64,000 nucleotides of DNA from Candidatus Cloacimonadales bacterium (GTDB lineage Bacteria > Cloacimonadota > Cloacimonadia > G963667145), in NCBI GenBank assembly GCA_965140615.1, contig OZ223280.1, positions 1,075,555 to 1,139,554 on the forward strand, given 5' to 3'. Made by a program: the position numbers and the translations under genes. Position 1 is the stretch's first letter; each line of letters starts with the position of its first letter. The notes beneath the pieces are model-generated. The model had not been told where the DNA came from and searched no databases. It saw only the letters and a list, made by a program, of their open reading frames with translations. Positions 18,106 to 53,049 of the stretch are shown one piece after another.

Positions 18106-18194
18106 GCAGAAGTGGTGGAATTGGTAGACACGCAAGACTAAGGATCTTGTGCCCGCTTTTGGGTGTGCTGGTTCAAGTCCAGTCTTCTGCACCA
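18106..18194 (+). tRNA. tRNA-Leu (class II, long variable arm). The hand-folded anticodon is AAG (18140-18142). CCA is encoded.
   Basis: Acceptor GCAGAAG/CTTCTGC. Anticodon stem CAAGA/TCTTG with the 7-nt loop C-T-A-A-G-G-A. T-arm GCTGG-TTCAAGT-CCAGT. Confidence 0.85.
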
Positions 18195-18209
18195 TATTTG
18201 CTTTTAGAT

Positions 18210-18298
18210 GCAGGAGTGGTGAAATTGGTAGACACGCAAGATTCAGGTTCTTGTGCTCATTATTGGGCGTGCTGGTTCAAGTCCAGTCTTCTGCACCA
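18210..18298 (+). tRNA. tRNA-Leu(CAG), class II. CCA is encoded.
   Basis: Acceptor GCAGGAG/CTTCTGC. Anticodon stem CAAGA/TCTTG with loop T-T-C-A-G-G-T. The T-arm is identical to the upstream tRNA. Confidence 0.9.
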
Positions 18299-43173: not shown

Positions 43174-44351
43174 ATCTTCTTCCTTATTATCCCGTGAGGG
43201 GGAATTTTTTTGTCCAAGGGCAAGCTGATGATGCTGTTAGGGTCGGTCTTGCTGATGGGGGCGTTTTTCTGATTTTTGATGGAGTGAACGCTGTAGCTGA
43301 AATCTTGCTCGATGGTGGGGAAGATGAACTCGATGGTGTCGCCTAGCTCGAACTTGGCTTTGATGGCGATTTTCACGAAGCCTGCTTGCTGTTCTACGAC
43401 TGTCCCCAAAAATTGATACTGGCGGATATATGCCGAGGATTGTGGGTTTTGCTCGCCGAGCGAGTCGGGGGCGATGAAGCCGCTGCTGTATGCACGGTGG
43501 CTTGTCTTGGTCAGTTCGCTTTTGAGCTGCTGGAGGTTGTTATCGCCTAGTAGTGCTTGCTTGTAGGCTCTGGTGGTGTTGGCGACATAGTACAGGCTTT
43601 TCATTCGTCCTTCTATCTTTACGCTCTCTATGCCTGCTGTTTGCAGTTGGTCGAGGTAGTCGATTAGGCATAGGTCTTTGGAGTTGAGGATGTAAGAGCC
43701 GTAGTCGTCTTCTTGTAGCTGAAACCATTGTCCTTGATGTTTCTGCTCGCTGATGGCAAATCCCCAGCGACACACCTGTGTGCAGAGTCCTTGGTTGGCA
43801 CTGCGTTGATTGATGAAGGAAGAGAGCAGACATCGCCCTGAGTAGGCGATGCACATTGCCCCGTGCACAAACACCTCTAGCTCCAGAGCGGGGAGCTTTT
43901 GCTTTATCTGGGCGATCTCCTCTAGGTGTAGCTCGCGTGCCAACACTATGCGGGTAGCTCCTTGCTCGTACCAAAACTTGGCACTTTGGTAGTTGGTGAT
44001 GTTGGCTTGTGTGGAGATGTGAATGGGGATAGCGGGCACTAGCTGGCGACAGAGGCTAAAGACGCCCGGGTCGGAGACTATTACGCCGTCTGGCTGGAGT
44101 TCACCCAAGAATTGCAGGAACTTGCTTAGCTTTTGCAGGTCTTGGTTGTGGGCGAAGATGTTGAGGGTGATGTAGAGTTTTTTGCCCTGAGCGTGGCAGA
44201 GGGCTTTGGCTTGGCAGATTTCCTCGTTGGTTAGGTTGCCAGCTTTTGCTCGCAGGCTGAAGCTCTTGCCGGCACAGTACACCGCATCTGCTCCGTAGTG
44301 GAGGGCGTATTGCAGTTTTGCCAGACTGCCAGCGGGGGATAATATTTCCAT
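43170..44351 (-). CDS. Peptidase U32 family protein
   Basis: N-terminus LSPAGSLAKLQYALHYGADAVY and ...E.FVHGAMC.... 393 aa. Confidence 0.85.
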   Translation of the reverse strand: MEILSPAGSLAKLQYALHYGADAVYCAGKSFSLRAKAGNLTNEEICQAKALCHAQGKKLYITLNIFAHNQDLQKLSKFLQFLGELQPDGVIVSDPGVFSLCRQLVPAIPIHISTQANITNYQSAKFWYEQGATRIVLARELHLEEIAQIKQKLPALELEVFVHGAMCIAYSGRCLLSSFINQRSANQGLCTQVCRWGFAISEQKHQGQWFQLQEDDYGSYILNSKDLCLIDYLDQLQTAGIESVKIEGRMKSLYYVANTTRAYKQALLGDNNLQQLKSELTKTSHRAYSSGFIAPDSLGEQNPQSSAYIRQYQFLGTVVEQQAGFVKIAIKAKFELGDTIEFIFPTIEQDFSYSVHSIKNQKNAPISKTDPNSIISLPLDKKIPPHGIIRKKI

Positions 44352-44467
44352 AAGGTGGAAGCCTCCATAAAAAAGATTTATTTACCTTTCTTTTGGATTT
44401 GACGCAAAGAGTAAAGGCAAAACAAAAAATTCTTTAATTATTTTTGGGGTTTATATCAAATTTGAGA

Positions 44468-44849
44468 GGTGAGTCGCTTACAGCGGGTTTTTGTCTTTTC
44501 TTGGGATGCTTACGCTGGTGTTTTGTTTGTGGTTTGTTCTCCTGCGGAGGGCTTACTCTTTTCGGGCGTCCGAAAAGAGTAACAGAAAAGTACGCTCCGC
44601 TCCAAGTCGCGAGAGGGCTGGCGAGGTTTTCAAGAGTTCCTCTGGTGAAGAGACCTCCTGTATTCTTGCCTTGGGTGAGTTGTTTGCTTATGGCTAAGCT
44701 CTAGCGTCTATCACAAAGCTGTTTAAGCTCTCGCTTTGCCCGTGGAGCGGAGAGTGTCCCCGCCCTGCCTAGCAAGTGAGACCGCCACTACCTCCGCCCA
44801 GTGTGTGCTGACCAGCTGTGCGAAGCACACGCTTAGAGCGGTGTGTGGG
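44468..44849. repeat. Noncoding repeat family A, copy 1 (full length, including the 111-nt tail module)
   Basis: About 96% identical by hand alignment to 50649-50929. The tail 44739-44849 matches 51500-51610. A 13-bp perfect hairpin lies at 44553-44582. Confidence 0.85.
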
Positions 44850-44893
44850 AGAGGTTGGGCTAAAGAAAAAACTTTAAGCGAGTAGCGTAAAAA

Positions 44894-45079
44894 TTCCTTA
44901 CGCCGAGTTGAGCTACGCTGACAACGAAGTGCTATATCACCGTTAAAAACGAATGAGTGTGATTCATAGCACGAGGCTGAAAGCGTGCGAGACAAGGCTT
45001 AGGAATTTCGCTAATTGCTTAGGTTTTTTGGGGTTTTTCTTTGGCTTTACCTTTCTTTTTGTCTAGTCAAAAAGAAAGG
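44894..45079. repeat. Repeat family C, copy 1 (diverged, ends in a 12-bp pyrimidine/purine hairpin)
   Basis: ttccttacgccgagttgagctacgctgacaacga... aligns with 51151-51330 at roughly 70-75%. Hairpin cctttctttttg/caaaaagaaagg at 45050-45079. Confidence 0.65.
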
Positions 45080-45161
45080 TAATAAGTCTAAGCAGTGTGC
45101 GGAAGAATAGATTGAGATGGTTGGTGTCTTGCCCTTGTTCCCAAGTTTTATTTGGGGTTGC

Positions 45162-45236
45162 ATATGGAATAAAGCGTATAGTTAATTTATAACGCGTATA
45201 CACTTCCAAGCTGGAGCTTGGGAGCGAGAACCGCCC
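45162..45236. repeat. Repeat family B, copy 1 (~75 nt, with palindrome ccaagct-gg-agcttgg)
   Basis: atatggaataaagcgtatagttaatttataacgcgtatacacttccaagctggagcttgggagcgaga recurs at 51077-51148 and 51373-51447. Confidence 0.85.
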
Positions 45237-45241
45237 CTAGC

Positions 45242-45380
45242 CCCAACGCCAATGGTGAGTCGCTTACAGCGGGTTTTTGTCTTTTCTTGGGATGCTTACG
45301 CTGGTGTTTTGTTTGCGGTTTGCTATCCTGCTCTTTTCGGAGTGCTTCGCTTATAATTTGCTCTGCTAACGCAGGGTTTT
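45242..45380. repeat. Repeat family A, copy 2 (5' part only, rearranged)
   Basis: ccccaacgccaatggtgagtcgcttacagcgggtttttgtcttttcttgggatgcttacgctggtg matches copy 1. It then switches to the ctcttttcgg(a/g)gtgcttcgcttata...ctgctaacgcagg module, also seen at 50590-50635. Confidence 0.75.
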
Positions 45381-45602
45381 CTTTTTCTTTTTGACAGACC
45401 AAAAAGAAAGAGAAGGAAAGAAAAAGTCAAAATCATAAGCCTCAATTCTAACTTGCAAAACTACCTTCGCAGTGGCTGTTGTGCATCATTTAATTTTTTT
45501 TTTAGAAGCCTAAAGCAAGAGACCTAAACTCCTCACACAGCCTCTAGCTCAGTCGTTTGAGCAAGTTTACGAATTTCGGCTTGAATGATTTGCTAGCCAC
45601 AT

Positions 45603-45944
45603 CCCCAACGCCAATAGCGAGTCGCTTATAGCGGGTTTTCTTTTTCTTTGGACGCTTACGCTGGTGCTTTGCTTGTGGTTTGCTCTCCTGCGGAGGGCTT
45701 ACTCTTTTCGGGCGTCCAAAAAGAGTAACAGAAAAGTACGCTCCGCTCCAAGTCGCGAGAGGGCTGGCGAGGTTTTTAAGAGTTCCTCTGGTGAAGAGAC
45801 CTCCTGTATTCTTGCTTTGGGTGAGTTGTGTGCTTATTGCTAAGCTCTAGCGTTTGCGGTAGGGCTGTTTAAGCTCTAGCTTTGCCCGTGGAGCGGAGGG
45901 TGTCCCCACCTTGCCTAGCAAGTAAGACCCTCCGTCAGGAGACC
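45603..45944. repeat. Repeat family A, copy 3
   Basis: Collinear with copy 1 from ccccaacgccaat to ...cctagcaagtaagac. The hairpin at 45699-45728 has one mismatch. It ends in gtaagaccctccgtcaggagacc, also seen at 51329-51352. Confidence 0.85.
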
Positions 45945-45981
45945 AATCCAAGGAGAAAGGGGGCTGGCGGGCTACGCCCAC

Positions 45982-46010
45982 AAAAAAAGCCATCGCCAAA
46001 AGGCGATGGC
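45982..46010 (-). terminator. Intrinsic terminator of the lipoprotein gene
   Basis: gccatcgcc/ggcgatggc stem with an aaaa loop. On the minus strand it is followed by TTTTTTT. Confidence 0.8.
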
Positions 46011-46033
46011 TTTCATTCGTAGCCTAAGAGCTA

Positions 46034-47878
46034 TTACTTGAATTTTGGTTTCTCATCGTTTGTCCAAGAAGATAAAGTTTCATTGTCAAAACCCCAATGA
46101 TCAACAACTCTGCTCACATCCCAGTCGCCGATATCTTGGTTGAATGCCTTTGCACTAGAGAACATATTCCCCATATCTGTAACACTACTGACATCCCAGC
46201 TACCGATGTCTTGGTTAAATGCGTATGTACTAGAGAACATACCTTTCATATTCGTAACGCTACTGACGACCCAATCGCCGATATCTTGGTTGAAAGCATC
46301 TGCATGCATGAACATATATCCCATATCTGTAACGCTACTGACGACCCATTCATTGATATCTTGATTGAAAACCTCTGCATGATTGAACATATCTCTCATA
46401 TTTGTAACACTGCTCACATCCCAATCTCCGATATCTTGGTTGAATGTGACTGCATAATAGAACATCTGCTCCATATTCTTTACCTTACTCACATCCCAGC
46501 CACTAATATCTTGGTTGAAGTTTTGTACAACAGAACAATTATTAAAACTCTCCCCTAGATAATCGGCTACCGACTTCATTAAGTATGACATGTCGGTAAT
46601 GCCCGAGGTGTTGACTTGGGTTACATCTTTGCCCTCGGCGATCATTTGCACCAGTTCTGCTCTGGTTATGCGGGCTTTGGGGGTGAAGCTCCAGACTTCG
46701 CTGGCTACAGTAGTGCCGTACTCCGTGCTGGCTACTACCTGCCAGTAATAGGTGGTAGACTCTAGTCCAGAGAGTTTGTAGCTGGTGGCAGTCAGAGTCT
46801 CCGATTTGTTAGTTAGATTGCTAGCGTCTGTTCCCCAGTACACGGTGTAGCTCTTGGCGTTCTCTCCGCTCCAACTGAGGGTTGGGTTGCTGGGTTGCTG
46901 AGTAGCACCATTTGCTGGGTTACTCAGAGTTACTGTCGGTGCGTCGTCGTTTACGAAGCTCCAGATTTCGCTTTTACCCGTCTCGCCGTTTTCTTTGGTG
47001 CCAGTTACTTGCCAGTAGTACTTCACGCCTACTCCTGCGATACTAATCTCTTTTCTAGTGCTAGTTAAGTCGTTTTGTTCAAAATTGGGATTATCTTTAT
47101 CGTCCGACCACAGTTTTAAACTATACTTTTGGGCTTCTCCGCTCCATTTCAGAACGATAGTGTTTTCTTTCCCTATGGCAGAGTTGTTTTTTGGTTCGGT
47201 TAGCTCTACAATGTCAGAAGCTTTTCCATTGGTAGTAAACTGTTGTGTTAAGCTTTTTGCACTCACCTCTTTTTTAATGGCTACAACTTGCCAGTAGTAA
47301 GTAGTGCCGTAGTTTAGGTCGTCTAATGCATAGCTTTTGTCAGTGATACCTTCGACTTGCTTTACCAAATTTGTCTTGGCAGAGTCTGTGTGTAGATAAA
47401 TGTTGTAAACATCAGCATTGCCACTCCAAACAAGGGTTACTTTGACTTTTTCTTCTGCCGTCTCTTCTCCGTGAACTATTTCGTTATTTGTAGGCGAGGT
47501 GAGACTCACTACAGGTCCGTCTTTGGTGGTGAAGCTCCAGACTTCGCTGGTTTTCGAGGAGGTTTCGTTTTTGGCTTCCACTTTCCAGTAATATTTGGTT
47601 TCATAAATCAAGTCTTTTGGTGCATAGCTGGTTTGTGCTATGCCGTTTTTTACTTTTTTGAGGTTATCGGCAGATGTTCCCACATATACATCGTAGATTA
47701 GTCCATTGCTATTCCAAGATAGCTCCAGATCGATCTCCTGAGCGGTGGCTTCGTTAGCTGGAGTACTTAGAGCCGCAGACAAATCTTGATTGTCGCCAGA
47801 GCCAGTGGACGACGAACACGCCACCAAGAAAAATACCCCCCAAACAACGCTTAGTAAGAGAAAAACACGCTTTTTCAT
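46034..47878 (-). CDS. Surface lipoprotein with four FN3-like ~90-aa repeats and a C-terminal array of ~26-aa BspA/DUF285-type repeats
   Basis: Start at MKKRVFLLLSVVWGVFFLVAC (lipobox LVAC). The pattern W-S-G...Y-x-V/I-Y...T-x-YYWQV...S-E-V/I-W-S-F occurs four times. FNQDIG(D/S)WDVSSVT(N/D)M..MF occurs about six times. Confidence 0.85.
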   Translation of the reverse strand: MKKRVFLLLSVVWGVFFLVACSSSTGSGDNQDLSAALSTPANEATAQEIDLELSWNSNGLIYDVYVGTSADNLKKVKNGIAQTSYAPKDLIYETKYYWKVEAKNETSSKTSEVWSFTTKDGPVVSLTSPTNNEIVHGEETAEEKVKVTLVWSGNADVYNIYLHTDSAKTNLVKQVEGITDKSYALDDLNYGTTYYWQVVAIKKEVSAKSLTQQFTTNGKASDIVELTEPKNNSAIGKENTIVLKWSGEAQKYSLKLWSDDKDNPNFEQNDLTSTRKEISIAGVGVKYYWQVTGTKENGETGKSEIWSFVNDDAPTVTLSNPANGATQQPSNPTLSWSGENAKSYTVYWGTDASNLTNKSETLTATSYKLSGLESTTYYWQVVASTEYGTTVASEVWSFTPKARITRAELVQMIAEGKDVTQVNTSGITDMSYLMKSVADYLGESFNNCSVVQNFNQDISGWDVSKVKNMEQMFYYAVTFNQDIGDWDVSSVTNMRDMFNHAEVFNQDINEWVVSSVTDMGYMFMHADAFNQDIGDWVVSSVTNMKGMFSSTYAFNQDIGSWDVSSVTDMGNMFSSAKAFNQDIGDWDVSRVVDHWGFDNETLSSWTNDEKPKFK

Positions 47879-47934
47879 AATAACATCCTTAAAGATTTTA
47901 AATATCCAAGGTGTGAGAGCAAAATGACCACCTA

Positions 47935-49089
47935 TTATTTTTTGTGTGTAGCAACAACTGAAAACATTCGAACCATCCATCTGTTAAAAAATTTGTCAAG
48001 GGGAAAATAGTTTTTGGTGGGCGGTACACAGTAAAAGTATCCACCCTTATTTATTTTTTCTATATCTTTTAAATAATAATCTGTGATTATTGGGCTAATG
48101 TTCAAAACATTAAAATTGGGCTTCCTAGAATTTTCCCGCAAAATTTGCTTCGGAGTCTTACCTTTTCGCCCTCTGTTTCCTCTAAAATGATTAAAATACA
48201 GCGTATAACTGTGTGCTTTACGCACAAAATCGTTGCAATCATCAAATTCATCAATCAGATAAAACTCGTCCTCTACCAGCCGATGAGCACTTTCAACATC
48301 AGAATTAAAAGTGGGCGAACCTTTGGGGATAAGCGAATGATTAGCACCATTTATTTGCACACTTTTTTGAAAAAAGCTCAAACCCTTTTTCTTGGGACTC
48401 ACAAACTCTGAGCCATTGTCGGTTTGAAAAGTAACTTTGGAAAGATCAACACCACAACTCTTTAATCTTTTAGACAAAAAATCGATATAAATCCCTGCAT
48501 TTACGGCTGTTTTCTCATAGCAATAACCGATGAATTGCATACCAGTTTTGTAGTCTCTAGCAGTGATTTGATAGCGAGGATAATTTTTGTACTTAATCCC
48601 CTCAAACAATTCTGGCATATCGGTCAAATACTTAATATCCACTTGGATTTTTTCAAAAGGTTTTGCCCTAGCTCGCATTTCACTTAAATCTTTGCGTTGC
48701 TGATATTTCCGTTTCTTTTTCTTTACCAAACCAGCATCACAGAGCTTTTTATGAACAGTCGAAGCTGAACAATTTAACTGCAAATGGTCAATAATTCGCC
48801 TAGCTCCCCAGCGATTTTTTGCCTTTTTGCGACAAACTACTATTTCCTCTATTATCTCAGATTTTAAGCGATTTGGGAAATTTTGCTTTTTTCGAGATTT
48901 ATTAACCAGACCATCCTCGCCCTTTTCTTTATAGGCTTTGACCCACTTTCGCACAGTTTTTCTAGTGGTCTCAAATTCTCTAGCTGCAGCGGAAATAGAT
49001 GTTTCATTTGCAAATTTCACCAAATTTTTCCGATAAAATTTCTTGTCTTTTCTACTCATAATTTTCAAATTGTCTATATATTTATTCAT
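47935..49089 (-). CDS. DDE transposase of IS copy A. The ORF has no stop inside the element and ends in flanking DNA.
   Basis: N-terminal HTH (ETSISAAAREFETTRKTVRKWVKAYKE) and a DDE triad context (QVDIKYL, TFQTDNGSEF, DVESAHRLVEDEF). The start is uncertain, either ATG 49089 or TTG 49098. Confidence 0.85.
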   Translation of the reverse strand: MNKYIDNLKIMSRKDKKFYRKNLVKFANETSISAAAREFETTRKTVRKWVKAYKEKGEDGLVNKSRKKQNFPNRLKSEIIEEIVVCRKKAKNRWGARRIIDHLQLNCSASTVHKKLCDAGLVKKKKRKYQQRKDLSEMRARAKPFEKIQVDIKYLTDMPELFEGIKYKNYPRYQITARDYKTGMQFIGYCYEKTAVNAGIYIDFLSKRLKSCGVDLSKVTFQTDNGSEFVSPKKKGLSFFQKSVQINGANHSLIPKGSPTFNSDVESAHRLVEDEFYLIDEFDDCNDFVRKAHSYTLYFNHFRGNRGRKGKTPKQILRENSRKPNFNVLNISPIITDYYLKDIEKINKGGYFYCVPPTKNYFPLDKFFNRWMVRMFSVVATHKK

Positions 49090-49231
49090 AATGGTCAAAT
49101 TACAGCTCTCACGGCTGATTTGACCATTTTTTTTACAGACTATTTCTCCATTTTTCTAATTAACTTTTCCATTTTATCATAAACCAGCCAATTACAAATC
49201 ACTAACTTTGGGTGGATACTTTTAGTGTGGA
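48025..49231 (-). mobile_element. IS element copy A (about 1.2 kb, DDE/rve transposase, IS481-family-like), delimited by 22-bp imperfect inverted repeats
   Basis: The reverse complement of 48025-48046 (gggtggatacttttactgtgta) matches 49210-49231 (gggtggatacttttagtgtgga) at 20 of 22 positions. Confidence 0.7.
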
Positions 49232-50324
49232 GTTTCCAAAAATAGTTTTTGGTGGGCGGTACACAGTAAAAGTATCCACCCTTATTTATTTTTTCTATAT
49301 CTTTTAAATAACAATCTGTGATTATTGGGCTAATGTTCAAAACATTAAAATTGGGCTTCCTAGAATTTTCCCGCAAAATTTGCTTCGGAGTCTTACCTTT
49401 TCGCCCTCTGTTTCCTCTAAAATGATTAAAATACAGCGTATAACTGTGCGCTTTACGCACAAAATCGTTGCAATCATCAAATTCATCAATCAGATAAAAC
49501 TCGTCCTCTACCAGCCGATGAGCACTTTCAACATCAGAATTAAAAGTGGGCGAACCTTTGGGGATAAGCGAATGATTAGCACCATTTATTTGCACACTTT
49601 TTTGAAAAAAGCTCAAACCCTTTTTCTTGGGACTCACAAACTCTGAGCCATTGTCGGTTTGAAAAGTAACTTTGGAAAGATCAACACCACAACTCTTTAA
49701 TCTTTTAGACAAAAAATCGATATAAATCCCTGCATTTACGGCTGTTTTCTCATAGCAATAACCGATGAATTGCATACCAGTTTTGTAGTCTCTAGCAGTG
49801 ATTTGATAGCGAGGATAATTTTTGTACTTAATCCCCTCAAACAATTCTGGCATATCGGTCAAATACTTAATATCCACTTGGATTTTTTCAAAAGGTTTTG
49901 CCCTAGCTCGCATTTCACTTAAATCTTTGCGTTGCTGATATTTCCGTTTCTTTTTCTTTACCAAACCAGCATCACAGAGCTTTTTATGAACAGTCGAAGC
50001 TGAACAATTTAACTGCAAATGGTCAATAATTCGCCTAGCTCCCCAGCGATTTTTTGCCTTTTTGCGACAAACTACTATTTCCTCTATTATCTCAGATTTT
50101 AAGCGATTTGGGGAATTTTGCTTTTTTCGAGATTTATTAACCAGACCATCCTCGCCCTTTTCTTTATAGGCTTTGACCCACTTTCGCACAGTTTTTCTAG
50201 TGGTCTCAAATTCTCTAGCTGCAGCGGAAATAGATGTTTCATTTGCAAATTTCACCAAATTTTTCCGATAAAATTTCTTGTCTTTTCTACTCATAATTTT
50301 CAAATTGTCTATATATTTATTCAT
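49140..50324 (-). CDS. DDE transposase of IS copy B. Its C-terminal tail is read from the inter-copy junction.
   Basis: Identical to copy A except F/S (KKQNSPN) and Y/C (IITDCYL), plus a different 3' tail after ...PPTKNYF. Confidence 0.85.
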   Translation of the reverse strand: MNKYIDNLKIMSRKDKKFYRKNLVKFANETSISAAAREFETTRKTVRKWVKAYKEKGEDGLVNKSRKKQNSPNRLKSEIIEEIVVCRKKAKNRWGARRIIDHLQLNCSASTVHKKLCDAGLVKKKKRKYQQRKDLSEMRARAKPFEKIQVDIKYLTDMPELFEGIKYKNYPRYQITARDYKTGMQFIGYCYEKTAVNAGIYIDFLSKRLKSCGVDLSKVTFQTDNGSEFVSPKKKGLSFFQKSVQINGANHSLIPKGSPTFNSDVESAHRLVEDEFYLIDEFDDCNDFVRKAHSYTLYFNHFRGNRGRKGKTPKQILRENSRKPNFNVLNISPIITDCYLKDIEKINKGGYFYCVPPTKNYFWKLHTKSIHPKLVICNWLVYDKMEKLIRKMEK

Positions 50325-50466
50325 AATGGTCAAATTACAGCTCTCACGGCTGATTTGACCATTTTTTTTACAGACTATTTCTCCATTTTTCTAATTAACT
50401 TTTCCATTTTATCATAAACCAGCCAATTACAAATCACTAACTTGGGGTGGATACTTTTAGTGTGGA
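49260..50466 (-). mobile_element. IS element copy B, in direct tandem with copy A (period exactly 1235 bp)
   Basis: The 48022-49256 unit repeats at 49257-50491, with about 5 substitutions noticed by eye. Confidence 0.7.
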
Positions 50467-50579
50467 GTTTCCAAAAATAGTTTTTGGTGGGAATTTTGTG
50501 ATGGGGTGTTGTCTCTACAAGGCAGAGAAGGGGCTTTCGTCGCAAGTTTCGCTTAGGTAAAATTTTTTTCTTTTGCCCG

Positions 50580-50929
50580 AGGGGCTTACTCTTTTCGGGG
50601 TGCTTCGCTTATAGTTTACTCTGCTAACGCAGGTTTTCTTTTTCTTTGGACGCTTACGCTGGTGGCTTGCTTGTGGTTTGCTCTCCTGCGGAGGGCTTAC
50701 TCTTTTCGGGCGTCCGAAAAGAGTAACAGAAAAGTACGCTCCGCTCCAAGTCGCGAGAGGGCTGGCGAGGTTTTAAGAGTTCCTCTGGTGAAGAGACCTC
50801 CTGTATTCTTGCCTTGGGTGAGTTGTGTGCTTATGGCTAAGCTCTAGCTTCTATCACAAAGCTATTTAAGCTCTCGCTTTGCCCGTGGAGCGGAGAGTGT
50901 CCCCGCCCTGCCTAGCAAGTGAGACTGCC
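50580..50929. repeat. Repeat family A, copy 4
   Basis: Near-identical to copy 1 across about 280 nt. Perfect hairpin at 50697-50726. Confidence 0.85.
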
Positions 50930-51076
50930 TTGTCCTGCCCTTTTGAGCATCGTGGGGTGGTGGTTTCCTGCGTCCGCTCAGAATGAAGAGAGTGAGCAGG
51001 AATAAGGGAGGATGAGTAAGAATGAAAGCGGGTGGAATGGAATGAGGGTGGGTGGTGAGAATGCAAGGCTGGTGGT

Positions 51077-51148
51077 CATACGGAATAAAGCATACAGTTA
51101 ATTTATTTACTCGTATACACTCCCAAGCTGGAGCTTGGGAGCGAGAAA
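51077..51148. repeat. Repeat family B, copy 2
   Basis: catacggaataaagcatacagttaatttatttactcgtatacactcccaagctggagcttgggagcgaga. Confidence 0.8.
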
Positions 51149-51150
51149 CA

Positions 51151-51330
51151 TTCTTTACGCTGAGTTGAGCTTACGCTGACGACGATGTACTATATCTCCT
51201 CTATTAAGACAATTGTGATTTCTAGCACAAGGCTTTCAGCGTGCGAAGAAGGTTTAGAATTTAGCTTGCTGATTTGGTATTTTGATTTTACCTTTTGTTA
51301 CTTTTCGCTTTGGTCAGCCAAAGGGAAAAG
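51151..51330. repeat. Repeat family C, copy 2
   Basis: ttctttacgctgagttgagcttacgctgacgacga... The hairpin cttttcgctttgg/ccaaagggaaaag at 51301-51330 pairs at 12 of 13 positions. Confidence 0.65.
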
Positions 51331-51372
51331 TAAGACCCTCCGTCAGGAGACCAAAAGTTTTACTTGGTGGTG

Positions 51373-51447
51373 ATATGGAATAAAGCGTATAGTTAATTTA
51401 TAACTCGTATACACTCCCAAGCTGGAGCTTGGGAGCGAGAGCCGCCC
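51373..51447. repeat. Repeat family B, copy 3
   Basis: atatggaataaagcgtatagttaatttataactcgtatacactcccaagctggagcttgggagcgaga. Confidence 0.85.
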
Positions 51448-51494
51448 CCTGACCGACGCCAGTGGTTTGCTTAGTGCGTACTTGTGCTTCGGAC

Positions 51495-51610
51495 TCTAGC
51501 CCGTGGAGCGGAGGGTGTCCCCGCCTTGCCTAGCAGGTAAGACCGCCACTACCTCCGCCCAGTGTGTGCTGACCAGCTGTGCGAAGCACATTCTTAGAGT
51601 GATGTGTGGG
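51495..51610. repeat. Repeat family A, tail module only (copy 5)
   Basis: About 93% identical by hand alignment to 44739-44849, with 8 differences in 111 nt. Confidence 0.8.
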
Positions 51611-51705
51611 TAAGTTTGGGGTTGATATCAAAAATCTACCTCATTGCAATTAATTTCCCTTTCTTGTTTGACAAAAGCAGATTTCCTCAAAGGTTGGTTA
51701 GCTAT

Positions 51706-53049
51706 ATGATGTACTCTAAAAGATTTGTATCCCAAGCTATTTTGGGCGTTATTTTGTGCCTGTGTTTGTCCGCGTGCGGTAGCCGAGGCGATATTTCGGG
51801 TGGTCCATTGGATGAGCTAAAGCCAAGTGTGGTGGGCACTGAGCCTAGTGAGTTCCGCTCTATCAAGAGTAAGATGCTCAAGGTCGTTTTTAACAAGCCG
51901 ATAGATGAGGCTAGTGCCAAAGAGCATATCAGATTTTATCCTAAGCTAAGCTACAGTGCCTATGCTACGGACAAGACGCTGAGCATCGCCATCAAATCGG
52001 ATTTACTCTTGGGCAAGAACTATTACCTGATAATCGAAAGTGGGCTGAAGTGCTACCACGATATCCCGATGGAGCGAAGTCAGAGTTTTATCTTTTGCAA
52101 CGACTATCTGGCGAGCAACGAGATTTCTGGAGAGCTTGTTTATGAGAAAAAGGAAGACGAGAGCGATACTGTACTTATTAAGGTTTACGACGAAGATTCG
52201 GTTTTCATCTTTCAGCAAGAGGCTCTATCGCCCGGGTATGAGCTAAAGTATCTTAGCCAAGGCTCTTACCAAGTGAAGGCTTACATCGATAAGAACAAAA
52301 ACGGAAAGGTTGACCGGAAGAGTGAGCCTTTTTGGGAGAAAGATTTTTTGGTGAGCAAGAAGTTTACTGTAGAGCCGATGGTAATGGGTTACACTGACAC
52401 CATCGCCCCTAGACTCAAGGAGGTGAAGCTTGCCTCCAATCGTAGGATGACTGTTGAGTTTGATGATGACCTGACACAGCTGGGTGAGTTTACCATTACC
52501 GCTCTGGCGGACACGCTGGTGAGTGTGAGCGAGGCTGGGGATACACTGCGGACTGCCAGAGCTCAGCAGGAGCTGGAGGTCTTGGCGTCCCGCTTGCTAG
52601 GTGGTCGGCTGAGTTTGCTGACACAGGAGATGCAGGAGCGGGAGTACCGCTTTACTTGCAAGGGTCTTGGCGACTGGAAGCAGAACAAGACAAAAGCGGA
52701 CACATTGTTCTTTCAAGGTAAGGCTGACCAGCTGGATACGCCTGTGCAGCTCACGGGGAGCGATCCTGCCAAAAATTCTGGGGTTACCTCGCTTTTGCCG
52801 GTGTTCAAGCTTAGTTTCGATAGACTGCTGCTGCCCACGCAGGTGAGCGTGGCTTTGGTGGCGAAAGATGGTGGTGAGCGGACAGCTTTGTCTTTGCAGA
52901 GTAGTGATGGCTTCGTGTTTGCGTATGTGCCTCAAAAGGAGCTGGAGAACTTTACCAGCTATCTATTGGTGGTTAGTGCCAGCGATGTAGAGGGCAACGC
53001 TATGTCTGAGAGCAAGATAGAGTTCATCACCACAGAGCAAAAGGAGTAG
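51706..53049 (+). CDS. Lipoprotein with Ig-like (SbsA_Ig/BIg-type) N-terminal domain features; function unknown
   Basis: Start at MMYSKRF... with lipobox LSAC. PSVVGTEPSEF...MLKVVFNKPID is typical of Ig-like surface-layer-type domains. The track start at 51604 lies inside repeat A. Confidence 0.6.
   Translation: MMYSKRFVSQAILGVILCLCLSACGSRGDISGGPLDELKPSVVGTEPSEFRSIKSKMLKVVFNKPIDEASAKEHIRFYPKLSYSAYATDKTLSIAIKSDLLLGKNYYLIIESGLKCYHDIPMERSQSFIFCNDYLASNEISGELVYEKKEDESDTVLIKVYDEDSVFIFQQEALSPGYELKYLSQGSYQVKAYIDKNKNGKVDRKSEPFWEKDFLVSKKFTVEPMVMGYTDTIAPRLKEVKLASNRRMTVEFDDDLTQLGEFTITALADTLVSVSEAGDTLRTARAQQELEVLASRLLGGRLSLLTQEMQEREYRFTCKGLGDWKQNKTKADTLFFQGKADQLDTPVQLTGSDPAKNSGVTSLLPVFKLSFDRLLLPTQVSVALVAKDGGERTALSLQSSDGFVFAYVPQKELENFTSYLLVVSASDVEGNAMSESKIEFITTEQKE

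Follow-up and report, generated by a model that had tools for sequence, protein, structure and literature searches.

Fold-back repeats of a previously undescribed, lineage-restricted and probably non-autonomous family in intergenic islands of Candidatus Cloacimonadota

A 64,000-nt stretch of a Candidatus Cloacimonadales genome (contig OZ223280.1; hereafter the window, whose own coordinates are used below) contains an island of noncoding repeats, among them three full copies of an element that we call repeat A. Homologous elements are dispersed around two related complete chromosomes, lie almost exclusively outside predicted genes and share one folded plan. The repeat family is previously undescribed. 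We interpret its members, with modest confidence, as fold-back repeats that form a new non-autonomous family restricted to one lineage, comparable to REPIN/BIME, BOX and MITE elements and accumulating in intergenic islands. The islands collect insertion sequence (IS) elements and surface-protein genes as well.

Comparison of two noncoding stretches with the whole window by blastn bore out an earlier note, made from the sequence alone, which had described three collinear, near-identical copies. Their identities are 91–95%: 44476-44786 aligns to 50623-50929 at 94.5% over 311 nt, 44471-44783 to 45619-45929 at 91.4% over 313 nt, and 45631-45928 to 50629-50925 at 92.6% over 299 nt. All lie on the plus strand, copy 1 at 44468-44860 (head 44468-44538, core 44539-44766, tail 44767-44860), copy 3 at 45603-45929 (core 45685-45912), joined at its 3′ end to a module C end (45920-45946), and copy 4 at 50623-50929 (core 50683-50909). 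Two partial plus-strand copies that the note had also listed are real. One, at 45241-45331 (blastn and repeat finder), is a 5′ part comprising the head module only, fused to a module termed D7; the other, at 51499-51620, is a 3′ part comprising the tail module and the 3′ arm of the helix P1 described below (91% to 44738-44859 by blastn).

The single unit of 330–380 nt proposed earlier does not survive this comparison, as the copies are a mosaic of independent modules around a core of ~228 nt that is invariant among the three. The outer parts of the proposed unit are not common to all copies. The segment 44786-44859, from the tail, recurs solely at 51499-51620; the head 44468-44538 recurs at 45254-45331, where it is joined to D7; and 50580-50622 is part of another module, matching 45331-45390, rather than of repeat A. 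Within the window, every repeat copy sits in one island. The description of this DNA as gene-free is borne out for the repeats, since 44352-46033 and 50470-51603 contain no open reading frame (ORF) of at least 130 aa and no conserved small ORF.

The core contains, in order, a small hairpin CTCC-TGC-GGAG, a longer hairpin H1, an AGAAAAG linker, a 157–158-nt body closed by the helices P1 and P2, and a GTCCCC tail. The small head hairpin (44539-44549, plus strand; found by motif search, with a terminator-like scan match at 44536-44552) also occurs in module C and in the elements of the relatives; a T-rich run comes after it, which gives it the look of a terminator. H1 (44553-44582, plus strand) is the previously noticed 13-bp hairpin TTACTCTTTTCGG-GCGT-CCGAAAAGAGTAA, with a polypyrimidine and a polypurine arm; it is perfect here and at 50697-50726 and carries one mismatch at 45699-45728, and its stem is preserved with different sequences in other subfamilies. 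A small hairpin GCTTA-NNNN-TAAGC is likewise present, its loop differing in copy 3. The long-range complement reported earlier as 9 nt is real and longer than claimed, although its 5′ coordinates had been placed one base too low: P1 consists of CTCCGCTCCA (44595-44604) pairing with TGGAGCGGAG (44743-44752) over 10 bp, or 13 nt at 92% complementarity when the flanks are included, and in copy 4 it joins 50739-50748 to 50886-50895. Inside it, P2 spans 7–9 bp and pairs, in copy 1, GCGAGAG (44610-44616) with CTCTCGC (44729-44735). The body of copy 1 (158 nt; 44595-44752, plus strand), closed by P1 and P2, shows compensatory changes relative to the relatives' elements. The claim that terminal inverted repeats are absent therefore holds for the earlier unit boundaries and fails for the body, which is bracketed by inverted arms of 10–13 nt.

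Orthologues of the U32 peptidase encoded beside the island, 70–79% identical in amino acids, are present in four complete metagenome-assembled chromosomes of Candidatus Cloacimonadota (1.54–1.58 Mb). The elements fall into the subfamilies W (the window), T3 and one W-like copy (OY781061.1), and T1 and T2 (OZ245797.1), with one plan of H1, linker, P1, P2, body and tail common to all. H1 is built on CTTTTC/GAAAAG in every subfamily, while its outer stem sequence varies by subfamily. The linker reads AGAAAAGnnnn; P1 pairs CTCCGCTYCA with TGRAGCGGAG and is followed by 3–4 unpaired bases; P2 is GC[C/G/T]AG[A/C]G(AC) plus its complement; the body measures 137–167 nt; and the tail is (A/G)NNGTCCCC.

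The distribution of the family was assessed with motif searches of one genome per species, covering 185,579 species. A head motif, CTCCTG(N)CGGAGGG(N)CTTACTYTT, matched 46 times around OZ245797.1, 23 times around OY781061.1 and in no other genome. A strict element pattern (linker, P1 5′ arm, 137–167 nt, P1 3′ arm) likewise matched these two genomes only, with 16 matches in OY781061.1 and 60 in OZ245797.1; in the latter, this amounts to 60 bodies in 1.56 Mb from the strict pattern alone, to which at least four further module families are added. A covariance model, R1, built from the alignment of 16 W and T3 copies, recovered exactly three full copies in the window at 148–155 bits (44581-44766, 155 bits; 45727-45912, 148.5 bits; 50725-50909, 153 bits), 20 matches in OY781061.1 loci and 68 in OZ245797.1 loci, where T2 scores 55–81 bits and T1 a weak 20–25 bits. 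Two locus pairs overlap in these counts, so that a few copies are counted twice; L005 and L052 of OY781061.1, for example, list one copy twice. The model matched neither the outgroup locus nor any of the loci taken from two sister species. The head motif had no match in JGI metagenomes or IMG/VR, the full composite unit none by blastn in phage and plasmid collections, and the exact 30-nt H1 hairpin none among the genome contigs searched; protein records likewise held no exact counterpart of the U32 peptidase or the cytidine deaminase of the window. Outside predicted genes lie 72 of 73 copies, in all four orientations relative to neighboring genes, and the heads in OZ245797.1 favor neither strand (one skew domain has 18 plus and 15 minus, the second has 7 and 6).

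These searches bear on one alternative, a local segmental duplication or a decayed gene or IS-end remnant without any wider family. The confinement of all copies of the window to one island would fit it, as would the failure of the searched collections to yield the genome of the window itself, and the earlier note had named confinement to one locus as a sign of it; this is true within the window and untrue in the relatives, where homologs with P1, P2, linker and tail are dispersed around two chromosomes. Nor does a decayed gene or IS end account for the repeats: there is no ORF or protein similarity, and the ends of the IS481-like and IS3 elements found beside them are unrelated to the repeat. 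Because of the dispersal in relatives we regard this alternative as effectively excluded and highly improbable.

The proposed helices are maintained by compensatory changes between subfamilies. Position 8 of P1 is C-G in the window and in locus L065 and T-A elsewhere, and P2 has G-C, C-G, A-T and T-A pairs across two positions. In a MAFFT alignment of the 16 W and T3 copies, 95.7% of cells were paired, compared with 38–49% when partners were slid; double changes were seen at 7 pairs, and the covariation score was reached by none of 500 shuffles. Across all 91 covariance-model matches, double changes occur at 18 pairs, although this alignment was fitted to the model and is thus biased towards structure. 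The earlier suggestion of a structured, noncoding, multi-copy element accordingly stands in its essentials, given dispersal in relatives and helices that covary, and falls in its single 330–380-nt unit without inverted arms.

In the main rival explanation, the copies are genes, or units of processed array transcripts, for a new multi-copy structured RNA of ~185–260 nt, its ends closed by P1/P2 or by the long helix of module C, that would work in trans, perhaps serving a protein as scaffold or guide. The preservation of helices across subfamilies and species is in its favor, as are an orientation independent of neighboring genes, which autonomous units would show, and the minus strand of copy 1, which folds better than its shuffles (z = −3.9). 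Variation within subfamilies gives a different picture, as most of it disrupts pairs: at consensus Watson-Crick pairs, 605 cells are mismatched and 17 are compensated. Mismatches of the G-T type (212) and of the A-C type (176) occur at similar frequency, without strand asymmetry, so that nothing marks either strand as the one read as RNA. P2 includes conflicting cases (intermediates of C-A type in T1, one T-G in T2), and an assignment of the RNA strand from G-U and A-C mismatch counts was abandoned, as it yielded no consistent strand. An RNA gene is further disfavored by the lack of an Rfam match, and of a conserved promoter in a sigma-70 scan of the island, by the absence of the family from two sister species, both at the orthologous site and across the loci examined, and by dozens of decaying copies per 1.56-Mb genome, a number that would be unusual if the RNA acted in trans. 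As far as sequence can decide, the patchy species distribution and the decay without compensation inside subfamilies tip the balance towards selfish DNA, and we consider the RNA explanation unlikely, though a serious competitor.

Further support for the fold-back interpretation comes from the orthologous site, the gap between the genes for the U32 peptidase and a Big_5 lipoprotein. In two sister species (OY781092.1 and OY762943.1) this gap measures ~115–200 nt and is repeat-free; it holds 1.2 kb of repeats in OZ245797.1, 1.75 kb of repeats in OY781061.1, and has grown to 7.3 kb in the window, where a DUF285/fn3 lipoprotein gene and a tandem pair of IS481-like copies are present besides the repeats. 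The repeat units at the site are inverted between the window and OY781061.1. The U32 gene itself is 76.5% identical in nucleotides between these two genomes, and 59% at third codon positions.

Several observations weigh against the reading as mobile fold-back repeats. Repeats occupy the same intergenic gap in 7–8 of 9 locus pairs sharing orthologues between OZ245797.1 and OY781061.1, with differing families, and the islands are therefore either long-lived or recurrent landing sites. Module C is 94–96% identical between the window and OY781061.1, exceeding the neighboring U32 gene; the 96% match joins 51146-51354 to L005 8873-9062 and L052 1367-1556, the closest copy is the one at the orthologous locus, and the module C of the window nests inside the diversity of OY781061.1, where the within-genome mean is 86%. 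Repeat A reaches 82% with its best OY781061.1 copy and modules B and U ~80–82%, all above the U32 gene. This conservation fits element-level selection, in which competent copies alone leave descendants, exchange between lineages or a host function, and together with the shared island sites it would also fit functional elements that are kept vertically. The ~500 kb of element-bearing loci yielded no transposase or other mobilizing candidate, their sole repeated ORFs being IS3 OrfAB, ORF6N-domain proteins and surface proteins, and a crude HUH-motif screen of 64 element-bearing loci, covering part of the genomes, gave no credible RAYT/Y1 candidate. No target-site duplication was found, and no direct repeat flanks P1 or the head. 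There is no sharp constant terminus either, as left flanks fall into several unrelated classes with a T-run alone in common.

The conservation of the modules is the main point favoring RNA or functional readings. For the RNA explanation, the contrast between module C (94–96%) and a housekeeping gene (76.5%) and the synteny of some islands between species add to the compensated helices. A more specific version holds that the A/T and C modules are a new class of arrayed, dispersed structured RNAs with a protein partner, for example guides or scaffolds of a clade-specific RNA-directed mobility or defence system. It would explain both a sequence retention tighter than that of a housekeeping gene and the maintenance of helices over whole elements; we nonetheless judge it quite unlikely.

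The DNA between the repeat-A copies also consists of repeat modules (B, C, D7 and U). Module C is a second fold-back family, long and with two halves that pair, among which 8 pairs are compensated. Its copy at 51146-51354 (minus strand) shares the head motif (CTCCTGACGGAGGGTCTTAC) and has a 16-bp hairpin at 51298-51333; a second subfamily at 44860-45142 (minus strand) has an H1-like hairpin at 45047-45082. Module B (45143-45256) contains a palindrome related to CTCCCAAGCTGGAGCTTGGGAG, here TTCCAAGCTGGAGCTTGGGAG, and recurs at 51070-51146 and 51355-51466. Module D7 (45331-45390, plus strand) has its other copy at 50589-50647. Module U (45420-45602), which had looked unique, is a dispersed module with 15 matches in OZ245797.1 loci and 2 in OY781061.1 loci, at ~80% identity over 180 nt.

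The elements often lie in arrays, and the modules occur in composites. In OY781061.1, head-to-tail copies of a unit of reverse C, a B-like palindrome, T3 and a short spacer follow one another every 662 nt; the array lies downstream of a large surface-protein gene (L035 6250-8000 and L041 1-4300, at 888–904 kb). The same module order is found in degenerate form in the window, as A, then CCTGCCCTTTTG.GCATCGTG, then reverse C, B and A. The three copies of the window seem to belong to one degenerate local array of a composite unit and not to stem from three separate transposition events. In OZ245797.1, T1 and T2 mostly face each other, heads outward. A separate palindromic unit of ~60 nt (CTGACCACATAAAT...ATTTATGTGGTCAG) recurs beside T2 tails at L001 9290-9360, in L016, at L013 462-570 and in other OZ245797.1 and OY781061.1 loci, and substitutes for the interior of the T2 body in one copy (L013).

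Protein-coding and mobile sequences lie within the same islands. In the window, these are the DUF285/fn3 lipoprotein gene (46034-47980, minus strand), which is not part of the repeat and carries its own 75-nt periodic coding repeats at 46106-46594, and the two IS481-like elements (48004-49238 and 49239-50470, minus strand; HTH_32 and rve_3 transposase), which are 99% identical and abut directly, head to tail. Similar DUF285, fn3 and other surface-protein genes adjoin repeat islands in the relatives. An IS3-family copy in OZ245797.1 (L013 5290-6575; ends TGATATG...CATATCA, with TTT on both sides) interrupts a T2 linker, and all six IS3 copies in the loci examined adjoin repeats. In OY781061.1, an ORF6N-domain gene is tandemly duplicated along with a T3 repeat (L034 1944-6406, unit ~1830 nt); this domain family accounts for seven ORFs in the element-bearing loci.

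This setting raises a further alternative, in which the host keeps the repeats as signals in cis: stacked terminators or insulators, hairpins that stabilize mRNA, or recombination pads for swapping surface-protein genes and IS elements. Terminator-like hairpins number eight in 44300-46100, against 2.8 expected, and several of them, including the head hairpin, stand at module starts; module C in OY781061.1 mostly lies 100–300 nt downstream of a co-oriented gene; and islands occur at the same intergenic sites in two species and contain DUF285, fn3 and other surface-protein genes and IS copies. A terminator, however, needs no body of 157–185 nt with conserved internal helices. Orientation to flanking genes is mixed in OZ245797.1, units at the U32 site are inverted between the window and OY781061.1, and two sister species have no repeats at the same site. 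We regard host-kept cis signals as improbable. As a separate observation, the module C heads in OY781061.1 (loci L009-L052) divide without exception by position, those between 332 and 900 kb lying on the minus strand and those between 944 and 1436 kb on the plus strand; the T1 heads of OZ245797.1 do not divide in this way.

Under the preferred interpretation as fold-back repeats, we infer mobility, a trans-acting enzyme and a single-stranded DNA intermediate. Each element would be a unit that can fold as a single strand, with a head hairpin, H1 and a body with paired ends (P1 and P2). An enzyme encoded elsewhere in the genome may recognize the folded ends and copy or move the units. New units would land preferentially in or beside existing ones, building mosaic islands in a limited set of intergenic regions, and unequal recombination inside an island could then duplicate and shuffle modules. 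The copies of the window would represent one degenerate old array, later split by the DUF285 surface-protein gene and the two IS copies.

A number of known identities were tested and rejected. The earlier note recognized no Rfam family, in agreement with a gathering-threshold scan of the whole window, which returned two tRNAs only; these adjacent tRNA-Leu genes (18106-18298, anticodons AAG and CAG) are also its sole ARAGORN matches. Eight loci of the relatives gave nothing at the gathering threshold, and E-value scans of both island halves gave chance-level microRNA hairpin matches only. The earlier exclusion of CRISPR also stands, with units of 55–390 nt at irregular spacing and, in the relatives, arrays of 662-nt period without unique spacers. 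A type I toxin or small membrane peptide was rejected: most copies of a 62-aa frame that runs through module C have no start codon and one subfamily interrupts the frame, which varies with the hairpin loop and has no homolog among 5.8 billion proteins, and no small ORF is common within the repeat families. The genes diverge around the island, as they might at a replication origin or terminus, yet GC skew is positive across the whole window, which rules both out. The neighboring IS ends were dismissed as a source, as neither the IS481-like nor the IS3 termini are related to the repeat, and the IS3 copy of OZ245797.1 sits within a repeat instead of having repeats as its borders. The body does not appear to be a MITE inserted into a host element, as the loci examined contain no empty head-linker-tail unit without a body. 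Integron attC sites were rejected by eye, the R′′/R′ arrangement (RYYYAAC/GTTRRRY) being absent from the hairpin arms. A sigma-70 scan found no promoter in 50450-51750 and three matches in 44300-46100, none inside a repeat-A copy.

Interspersed structured repeats influence genome plasticity, gene expression and IS targeting in bacteria, and have been described mostly in cultivated Proteobacteria and Firmicutes. The family reported here forms a dense, multi-family repeat system in an uncultivated phylum with reduced genomes of ~1.55 Mb, and its islands coincide with variable surface-protein genes and IS insertions. The question of whether such elements are purely selfish, have been domesticated or are RNA genes matters for understanding how repeats are tolerated and used in small genomes, and related species with and without the family, together with conserved helices of ~20 bp, make it a clean test case. 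In annotation, the repeat stretches should be kept out of gene calls, and assemblies are likely to break at them.

The family does not show the full set of defining features of any one of REPIN/BIME, BOX and MITE elements, although it shares several features with each. IS200/IS605 derivatives (PATEs) and the guide RNAs of TnpB and IscB (omega RNA, HEARO) resemble the family in their subterminal hairpins without a need for inverted termini, and as structured noncoding units of 150–400 nt that can occur without a neighboring gene; they differ in that no TnpA, TnpB or IscB gene lies near the elements, and no HEARO or IS605-orfB Rfam match was obtained. The T1 heads of OZ245797.1 show no bias of orientation in either skew domain. 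MITEs such as the Correia elements of Neisseria and ERIC/IRU are similar in size (100–300 bp), in inverted arms (here P1 and P2) that fold back, in dispersed intergenic positions and in decaying copies around a conserved consensus. In contrast to MITEs, sequence conservation does not stop at the inverted arms but takes in the AGAAAAG linker, H1 and the GTCCCC tail; target-site duplications were not found, and neither the window nor the parts of the relatives' genomes that were covered yielded an autonomous IS sharing the ends of the element. REP/BIME and REPIN-RAYT systems of Escherichia coli and Pseudomonas share intergenic palindromic units in mosaic clusters with variable linkers, at least tens of copies per genome, a species-specific sequence with some cluster sites common to related species, a role as IS targets, and a replication that is thought to act on folded single strands. 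The units here are larger, with a body of 157–187 nt and a hairpin of 30–40 nt compared with ~20–40 nt for REPs, no RAYT-like gene was seen in the ~500 kb of element-bearing loci, and there is no sequence relationship. The BOX elements of Streptococcus pneumoniae (boxA-boxB-boxC) are likewise modular, noncoding and intergenic, with ends that can pair and no known transposase, and are recognizable without a target-site duplication, at ~100 copies in a small genome. They belong to another phylum and have no sequence similarity to the family described here, which is set apart from them by a freer recombination of its modules and by its head-to-tail arrays of 662-nt units.

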